Part shown: one piece after another, positions 4,513 through 7,092 of the stretch
How positions within the stretch are numbered: the stretch's first letter is position 1
How the letters are laid out: every line of letters starts with the position of its first letter
Origin: Octopus sinensis
Taxonomy: Eukaryota
Direction: 5' to 3'
Assembly: GCF_006345805.1 (NCBI RefSeq)
Contig: NW_021829051.1
Span: 1-7,092, forward strand
Length of the DNA: 7,092 nt
Translations under genes and position numbers: made by a program
The notes under the pieces: model-generated
Database searches by the model: none
What the model was told of the DNA's origin: nothing
What the model saw: only the letters and a program-made list of their open reading frames with translations

Positions 4513-4906
4513 GGATGTGCGGATGTGTGGTAAGAAGCTTTCTTCCTTACCAAATGGCTCCAGGTTCAGTCCTACTGCGTGTCACTTTGGGTAAATGCTT
4601 TCTGCTGTAGCCGCAGACAAACCAATGTGGTTGGATTTGGTTTACGGAAAACTGAAAGCAGCCCATGTGTGTGTGTGTGTGTGTGTGTGTGGTGTGTTTT
4701 AGTCTTCAACCACTGCATGACAACCGGCCGGTGTTGGTTTGTTTACGATACTGTAGCTCAGCGGTTTAGCAAAAGAGACTGACAGAATAAATACCAGTGT
4801 TACAAAAAGAAAATGGTACTGGATCGACATATTCAACTGAAAGATTCTTCAAAGTGGTGCTCCAGCATGACCACATTCAAATGACTAAAATAAGTAAAAG
4901 ATAAAA
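4513..4906 (+). mobile_element. SINE family B, diverged full-length copy
   Basis: GGATGTGTGGTAAGAAGCTT...CAGGTTCAGTCCTACTGCGTGTCACTTTGGGTAAATG, internal (TG)n, and 3' GGTGCTCCAGCATGACCACA...ATGACTAAAATAAGTAAAAG. Colinear with 1312-1738. Confidence 0.88.
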
Positions 4907-5826: not shown

Positions 5827-6050
5827 TTTATTTGTTTCAGTCATTAGAATGCGGCCATGCTGGAGCACCTCCTTCAAGAAGAATTTTAGTCGGACAAATC
5901 AGTCCCAAGTACTTATTTTTATTAAAGCCTGGTACTTATTCTATTGATTTATTTTATCGAACCGCTAAGTTATGGGTGAATAACCACACCGACACCGGTT
6001 GTTAACGTTCGTGGAGAACAGAGACGTAAACAGACATATGTATATATATG
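5827..6050 (-). mobile_element. SINE family B, 3' half
   Basis: TTTGTTTCAGTCATT...GCGGCCATGCTGGAGCACC...GGTACTTATTCTAT...GAACCGCTAAGTTA...CACCGGTTG; colinear with 1988-2190. Confidence 0.87.
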
Positions 6051-6239: not shown

Positions 6240-6268
6240 ATATATATATATATATAATATATATATAG
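6181..6268. repeat. (TA)n microsatellite
   Basis: Direct reading. Confidence 0.95.
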
Positions 6269-6269
6269 T

Positions 6270-6378
6270 GTAGGAAGAAATGAATGGAGCTGAACGAAGA
6301 TTTAACACAAATTCCTTTTTATTATTTTCTACATATGTTTCAAAGGCTGCAAAGTCCCTAATTCGGATTAAATCTTTG

Positions 6379-6379: not shown

Positions 6380-6406
<27 letters not shown>

Positions 6407-6411
<5 letters not shown>

Positions 6412-6718
6412 TATAATATCGATATTTAAATATCGATCTTATCAAGTGGCCAGCATAGGAATAAATACCATACAAAGGTAATAATTATTTAAAACTATAA
6501 ATTAGGGTATCTGAGAGATACCACCATGCTGAAATAGCAGTCAAAATCCTGACCCTAAAGCGACATTAAATGTTCATATAGCGCTAGGAGAGAAGACAGA
6601 GAGACAAAATAAACTAGCAAAAAAGATTTTACTGGATAAATCAAGATCCTGGATTTCTGGCTTTGCATAAGAGAAGCTCTGCCTTCGTCAGTTGAATATA
6701 CCTGATAAGAACATAAAT
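6407..6718 (-). mobile_element. hammerhead-containing repeat unit (Penelope-like terminal repeat or non-LTR retrozyme), copy 1
   Basis: Contains the hammerhead at 6634-6702, several hairpins and a 20-bp palindrome. Its left 44 nt recur at 7049-7092. Flanked by (TA)n and (CA)n. Confidence 0.6.
6634..6702 (-). ncRNA. type I hammerhead ribozyme motif with minimal palindromic stem III
   Basis: Minus strand: GGUAUAUUCAA-CUGACGA-A-GGC-agagcuucucuuaugcaaa-GCC-A-GAAA-UCC-A-GGA-UC-UUGAUUUAUCC. Core CUGACGA (6691-6685), GAAA (6657-6654), stem III AUCC-a-GGAU, AUC triplet (predicted cut between 6645 and 6644), and stem I UCAA/UUGA plus an imperfect extension. Confidence 0.72.
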
Positions 6719-6830
6719 ACATACACACACACACACACACACACCACACAACAAACACACACATACATATATTATACATATATATATATTATATATATTA
6801 TATATATATATAGTATATATATATATATAT

Positions 6831-6878
<48 letters not shown>

Positions 6879-6892
6879 TATATTATATATAC
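6719..6892. repeat. (CA)n/(TA)n microsatellite
   Basis: Direct reading. Confidence 0.93.
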
Positions 6893-7048
6893 AGAACATA
6901 CGTTATACTCACATATACGAACGCTCATACATATAATATGCAAGTATGTACAAGACCAGCTTAAATTGCCCGCCTAACTGCTCCACGCGCGCGATATGGT
7001 CAAAATAAACATCGCAGTGAATACAATGAGGAAATGTATAAATTATAA

Positions 7049-7092
7049 ATAAGGATAATATCGATATTTAAATATCGATCTTATCAAGTGGC
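7049..7092. repeat. direct repeat of 6407-6450, running off the window edge (probable copy 2 of the unit)
   Basis: 43 of 44 nt are identical; 7055-7092 matches 6413-6450 exactly; offset 642 bp. Confidence 0.92.

Follow-up and report, generated by a model that had tools for sequence, protein, structure and literature searches.

Does the minus strand near one end of a 7,092-base octopus contig encode a self-cleaving RNA and, if so, what kind of element carries it? The window, by which we mean the whole stretch of DNA analysed, is a complete contig of 7,092 bases from an assembly of 2.72 Gb, and its positions 6632..6704 (minus strand, as for all hammerhead coordinates below) can be drawn as a whole type I hammerhead. 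We consider it likely that this is a hammerhead of type I, enlarged by one base between C11.1 and G12 and located in a non-coding unit of about 482 bp that is a probable non-autonomous Penelope-like element (PLE), or non-LTR retrozyme, of which the window holds a probably inactive copy.

The type I core (C3 U4 G5 A6 N7 G8 A9, G12 A13 A14 A15.1, U16.1 H17) is complete in the window copy, and the positions follow each other in type I order, as an earlier note on this DNA had claimed. CUGACGA (C3-A9) lies at 6691-6685 and is followed by an extra A at 6684, between A9 and G10.1. Helix II, whose strands are GGC (6683-6681) and GCC (6661-6659) with G10.1 at 6683 and C11.1 at 6659, consists of 3 bp, a 3x3 purine loop and a distal hairpin; a second extra A (6658) separates C11.1 from G12 and precedes GAAA at 6657-6654. 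Helix III, spanning 6654-6646, is formed by UCC-A-GGA (6653-6647) with the A at 6650 in its centre, and U16.1 (6646) and C17 (6645) complete the stretch 6645..6691 that holds the core with helices II and III. Helix I joins AUUCAA (6697-6692) to UUGAUU (6644-6639) in 6 bp with one U-U mismatch and continues through a 3x3 internal loop into a distal helix (6704-6701 with 6635-6632). All three stems that the note had named were recovered, with their pairing kept among genomic copies, and its description of stem III as AUCC-A-GGAU with a 1-nt loop stands beside an alternative drawing with 3 bp and a triloop. The predicted cleavage site after AUC, placed from the core position, would fall at 6645/6644, the position already proposed.

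An accidental likeness in a satellite or SINE-like repeat would be compatible with the covariance-model check, in which neither the whole window nor 6560-6720 yielded an Rfam hammerhead at E<=10, and with the poor folding of the monomer, as the window motif folded alone takes no hammerhead shape (z +1.0 to +1.4). Against this, a specific hammerhead pattern matched once in the window and never in 200 shuffles, a relaxed descriptor matched once in the window with a chance rate of 3 matches in 1000 shuffles, and the compensatory changes and the shared design of a coding PLE, both described below, refute accidental likeness. Judged on its sequence, the motif is not a chance pattern, and we regard this explanation as very improbable.

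The motif departs from the strict consensus, in which the closing pair of helix II is directly followed by G12, by one inserted base. The two A's beside helix II had previously been read as an A-A mismatch and a possible mark of decay. Such a pair can be drawn in the subfamily of the window copy, but the two A's actually flank a G10.1-C11.1 pair that, with one base before GAAA set aside, is formed in 79 of 88 copies and replaced by G-U in 4. Between A9 and G10.1, where the window copy has its first extra A, 42 of these 88 copies also have A and 1 has C, while 45 have no base at all. Directly before GAAA, 73 copies have A, 10 have G, 4 have U and 1 has C, the non-A share being inflated because one pattern search excluded A; among flank-located copies, this base is A in 54 of 56 that are readable. 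Because of these counts, the 5' A is taken from the sequences to be an optional bulge typical of PLE hammerheads and the 3' A a fixed trait of the family. Decay as the origin of the A-A arrangement is ruled out by the family-wide 3' A and by the same design, with both A's, in a young PLE. An extra base between 9 and 10.1 is described as typical in the PLE hammerhead consensus of PMC4209133, in whose Fig. S3 one of 56 rows reads AGAAA, a row not assignable from the text. Among the papers listed in our literature searches, none deals with this hammerhead family, although Lunse et al. 2017 (RNA Biol) may cover the variant, and a term search of two cephalopod papers found no mention of the element.

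Conservation across copies, which the earlier note had proposed as a check, came out in favour of the ribozyme: core and pairing are conserved, with compensatory changes in helix I. We parsed 88 distinct copies for structure, most of them chosen by similarity or pattern, and counted pairs in 70 hand-picked ones, leaving out mainly indel copies and near-duplicates. Helices I and III are paired in 98.3% of the 700 cells of these 70 copies. Pair 1.2-2.2 of helix I is C-G in 28, A-U in 25, U-A in 13 and unpaired in 4. In a tree built from downstream DNA only, whose bootstrap had not settled, the A-U copies form one clade (32 rows, support 99/92) and the U-A copies fall within a different one (21 rows, 99/91), which they share with C-G rows; since the two forms sit in separate clades, at least two independent double changes seem to have occurred at this pair. 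The pair score was reached in none of 500 shuffles, a control that the relatedness of the copies inflates. Helix III has no double change among the 70 aligned copies; in a subfamily 72% identical to the unit, CCC-A-GGG replaces UCC-A-GGA with both sides changed. The distal hairpin of helix II, likewise changed on both sides, reads GCUUC/GAAGC in some copies and GCAU(U)/(A)AUGC in others. Taken together, the covariation comes from one helix I pair and from related sequences. The core is intact in 47 of 77 flank-located copies.

The element that carries the motif is compact. A search with motif and flanks gave at least 901 first-look candidates in the genome, and among the best 40 of these, which were scored and include the window, the others are 90-96% identical; the exact core pattern has at least 448 genome matches and none in a reversed control. 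Sharing is confined to the unit of about 482 bp, which exists in several subfamilies, and neither a protein ORF nor a shared flank beyond the unit was found in the copies examined. The window copy (6410..7092, minus strand) amounts to about 1.1 units, its 5' part being cut by the contig end. While the unit measures 482 bp in another copy (L007), it is 642 bp long in the window because microsatellites grew, with an (AC)n/(AT)n expansion at 6719..6891, inside the unit and upstream of the hammerhead. Where taxa are recorded, the protein clusters closest to those of neighbouring elements come mostly from molluscs; for the cephalopod assignment made in the earlier note, the hints are indirect. Contigs of seven sequencing runs, carrying two organism labels, match the unit, though such matches carry no information on ends, strand or level, and joints at the unit boundary in such contigs were seen in a probable DNA run too.

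The surroundings of the unit hold further repeats. At 6268-6373 on the minus strand, the window contains part of another hammerhead family, namely its 3' half (GAAA-CAUAUG-UA at 6341-6330), with an even palindromic helix III and no extra base; its 5' half is absent, its place being occupied by (TA)n and the element studied here, and full copies of that family occur elsewhere (L164, L106, L149). The flanks of the loci examined (L002-L249) hold at least six further hammerhead-like families with differing palindromic helix III, mostly beside TA runs. Common interspersed repeats are present in both orientations at 157-230/424-497, 1323-1680, 1989-2250, 4521-4900 and 5827-6005, and we take these to resemble the SINE-type repeats of octopus genomes.

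How the copies end is informative about how they might have been inserted. Hairpin A (6506..6522, minus strand) adjoins the commonest 3' end of the family on its upstream side, and hairpin B (6412..6443, minus strand), which recurs at 7054-7085, marks a second 3' end, at which the window copy stops; next to it, a (TA)15 run at 6380..6409 is the likely target. The 3' end lies close to hairpin A in 87 of 162 copies, close to hairpin B in 44 and between the two in 5; a further 12 continue and 14 have no readable hairpin A, and 91 of the 131 copies ending at hairpin A or B run into TA repeats. Hairpin A has an A-U to G-C double change in 11 copies. A CCU(A/U)AUUUAUA-like motif and a hairpin precede both preferred 3' ends, and it is possible that the two together form a recognition signal for a helper protein. 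The 5' ends vary widely, consistent with 5' truncation, and an inverted piece lies upstream in 37 of 88 copies. The anatomy of PLE-type insertion is found here: 5' truncation, inversion, fixed 3' ends and a microsatellite target. An AGUAAA hexamer (6633-6628, minus strand) and a U tract do lie beyond the cut site, as had been noted, but the poly(A)-like role suggested for the hexamer is not supported: only 2 of 77 copies have it, AGUAAU taking its place in 50, and the element ends 150-250 nt further on. We therefore rejected this reading.

Tandem copies are rare. Direct repeats at 482-503 nt, representing dimers and trimers, occur in 9 of 59 distinct long loci, two full-length motifs, mutated or intact, in 7 of 59 and tandem exact cores in 1 of 59 (L163). 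Because of these dimers and trimers, we rejected the idea that 5' extension is stopped at the cut site upstream. In a comparison bearing on rolling-circle copying, the identity of adjacent units is higher than that of the best match found elsewhere for 5 pairs out of 11.

The unit could instead be the pseudo-LTR of a lost or unsampled autonomous PLE, and its copies the 5'-truncated ends of that element. PLE insertions are described as mostly truncated to their 3' ends (PMC8557442), most copies here are shorter than one unit and the best 40 candidates were scored per search, all of which would fit such an origin. However, the long copies run upstream into another unit rather than into an ORF in all subfamilies seen, dimers and trimers occur, and the GIY-YIG matches near four family loci lie beyond the 3' end of the element, in separate insertions. 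No RT-EN ORF was found joined to the unit in the subfamilies seen, whereas a hammerhead of the same design, described next, does flank such an ORF. What tells against our own interpretation is that the 482-bp unit has no alignable DNA homology to the pLTRs of 30 PLE loci (best 30 of 25,722), short 3'-end fragments matching it at PLE loci look like separate insertions, and no pLTR homology was found at 30 GIY-YIG loci (best 30 of 14,243). We judge the pseudo-LTR origin unlikely and retain the non-coding, likely non-autonomous unit as our working interpretation.

Candidates for a helper exist in the same genome. Relaxing the search pattern brought up a decayed family in which a similar helix III lies downstream of a GIY-YIG-like frame, for whose domain Atlas matches carry PF01541 on 15-33% of members, and with a long homologue of that domain as query, intact ORFs of 717-728 aa were found. 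One of these, the 727-aa ORF of locus L220, contains YRDD and a Cys-rich linker, and its end is GIY-YIG-like; of 7,999 scored, 1,717 are homologues of its protein, and one of these carries PF01541. Scans of the 727-aa ORF, its GIY-YIG-like pieces and five homologues against Pfam and PDB gave no significant match, and homologue searches with short pieces found nothing. Since these scans were blank, the label Neptune/Nematis-type is drawn from motifs and domain order, and the element presumably is a PLE of that type. In this family, the terminal repeats of L220 are identical over 290 nt, and each contains a hammerhead whose 2-bp helix II is flanked by an A on either side and whose helix III, again of the 4-bp/1-nt form, reads CUC-A-GAG; this motif has 2,705 exact copies in the genome, and the family shows two alternative 3' ends in (TA)n as well as inverted copies. 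Other hammerhead families in the examined loci lack the extra base. The proposal that the window motif belongs to a Penelope-related or retrozyme family with a type I hammerhead gains support from the conserved copies, from their anatomy and from this intact PLE with the same design.

Several observations on these elements stand on their own. L220:1143-4600 is a very young intact PLE. Many of the 100 matches listed for its motif are back-to-back inverted pairs, and because their starts lie 30-60 bases apart, the inversion points seem clustered just 5' of the core. A second intact PLE family, of 717 aa (L224, L245, L246, L248 and L249), has a hammerhead-like motif with U4 changed to C, a U before GAAA, helix III as in L220 and, in helix II, a stretch complementary to its own core; with U4 = C, the status of this motif is uncertain. 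In an abundant decayed PLE family (L049, L054-L083; at least 14,243 first-look candidates), the GIY-YIG-like domain is preceded by a long low-complexity stretch of Thr/Asn/Ser and followed, about 120-250 nt downstream, by a hammerhead whose helix III is centred on 1-2 nt.

As to the window copy itself, it differs by 5.1% from the column majority of its own subfamily, close to the median of 5.3% in a sample picked for likeness to the window. Two private changes, at 6640 (A in 31 of 32 family members) and 6703 (T in 30 of 32), each break one helix I pair, and its distal helix II hairpin is a weak variant. With a hammerhead fold 5.4 kcal/mol above the minimum, the worst among seven copies folded, this copy is probably inactive.

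For the family, energy calculations point to a dimer, as the minimal palindromic stem III had suggested. Helix III is computed at +2.4 kcal/mol when it forms a hairpin, whereas the duplex reaches -7.6 with A and -9.9 with G in its centre, the junction pair of the monomer has a mean probability of 0.017, and in all four natural tandem pairs computed, the double hammerhead lies 5.5-14.2 kcal/mol below two monomers, while remaining 3.0-7.8 kcal/mol above the unconstrained minimum. By prediction only, the weak palindromic helix III would hence favour a dimer. A candidate "off-lock", in which the core CUG pairs with the centre of helix III, was rejected, its probability exceeding 0.5 in only 11 of 78 copies.

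That the active fold is not the energy minimum would also suit a hammerhead-derived but non-cleaving RNA, disabled by the extra base and competing folds and kept for protein binding or template switching. An insertion adjoining the general base G12 could impair catalysis, and the 717-aa PLE family has its U4 changed to C. PLE hammerheads are reported to have low activity in vitro, with other roles left open (PMC4209133), Naiad PLEs are described as spreading without canonical hammerheads (PMC8557442), and only one of nine Xenopus retrozyme dimers is reported to have been cleaved in vitro (preprint 10.64898/2026.07.22.740005); host factors have been suggested in the literature on such hammerheads. 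Yet all catalytic positions are kept in subfamilies that are about 20% apart in their flanking DNA, while the free position 7 varies, and mismatches (U-U) at the base of helix II are described as tolerated in active hammerheads (PMC3088659, PMC7229834). We find a non-cleaving role quite unlikely and favour a family of hammerheads that are predicted to cleave.

We infer that such a family would multiply as follows. Transcription through a rare head-to-tail dimer or trimer would allow two hammerheads to swap the strands of their near-palindromic helix III and to cut after AUC, releasing a unit-length RNA that might stay linear or be ligated into a circle. A PLE reverse transcriptase and GIY-YIG endonuclease, supplied in trans, would then use a nicked (TA)n target for priming, starting from one of the two hairpin-marked 3' ends, which would yield truncated, inverted or more-than-unit copies.

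Since hammerheads in PLEs and retrozymes are well described, the class itself is not news, and the insertion beside G12 is the twist. This insertion is kept both in an old repeat with many subfamilies and in a very young coding PLE; should these RNAs cleave, the hammerhead core would be more tolerant than present descriptors assume, and hammerheads would have been undercounted. We would put forward only tentatively, as a possibility short of an even chance, that a Neptune-type PLE lineage and its retrozyme passengers use an active hammerhead subtype defined by the C11.1-G12 insertion and a helix III of 4 bp around one purine. If true, thousands of ribozymes in this genome, and some PLE families considered "hammerhead-lacking", would have been overlooked, because Rfam and standard descriptors miss the subtype. 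The presence of a retrozyme-like unit and of intact candidate helper PLEs in one genome makes the proposed PLE origin and trans-mobilisation of animal retrozymes testable outside vertebrates.

In comparison with metazoan non-LTR retrozymes, as characterised by Cervera and De la Pena 2020 (PMC7229834), the unit is likewise non-coding and AT-rich with one type I hammerhead, and dimers, trimers, many monomers and co-occurrence with PLEs are shared features (PMC7229834; Li, Clavereau and Pollet 2026). In the axolotl HHR_Amex2, helix II likewise begins with a mismatch. With about 482 bp, the unit exceeds the RNAs of 170-400 nt given in PMC7229834 and falls inside the range of 51-972 bp in the preprint 10.64898/2026.07.22.740005. 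In contrast to those retrozymes, the arrays here are rare and short, circular RNA is a prediction, and comparison with 30 PLE loci found no pLTR sequence homology for the unit; a PLE origin of retrozymes is argued by Li, Clavereau and Pollet 2026 (10.64898/2026.07.22.740005).

The hammerheads in PLE pLTRs, as presented by Cervera and De la Pena 2014 (PMC4209133), resemble ours in type I topology, full core and G10.1-C11.1 pair, in the extra 9/10.1 base, which about half of the copies here possess, and in a palindromic helix III predicted to need a dimer, with dispersed single and inverted copies. The consensus given there has no base between C11.1 and G12, whereas the whole family here has one. 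The present family further differs from that description in an internal loop in helix II, a 6-bp helix I with a distal helix, and a 4-bp helix III around one purine, and a dimer therefore keeps a central A-A or G-G. The PLE hammerheads of PMC4209133 flank an RT-EN ORF, while the unit here was found joined to none. Neptune/Nematis-type EN+ PLEs, as described by Craig et al. 2021 (PMC8557442), differ from the unit in that the latter has no protein-coding frame and that about 90 nt separate its two 3' ends, where the paper gives a tail of 30-40 bp. The unit shares with them 5' truncation, partial tandems, an inverted 5' copy, two alternative 3' ends, a (TA)n bias and a hammerhead near the 3' end, and the 727-aa element of the same genome matches their published order of RT, Cys-rich linker and GIY-YIG-like end (PMC8557442).
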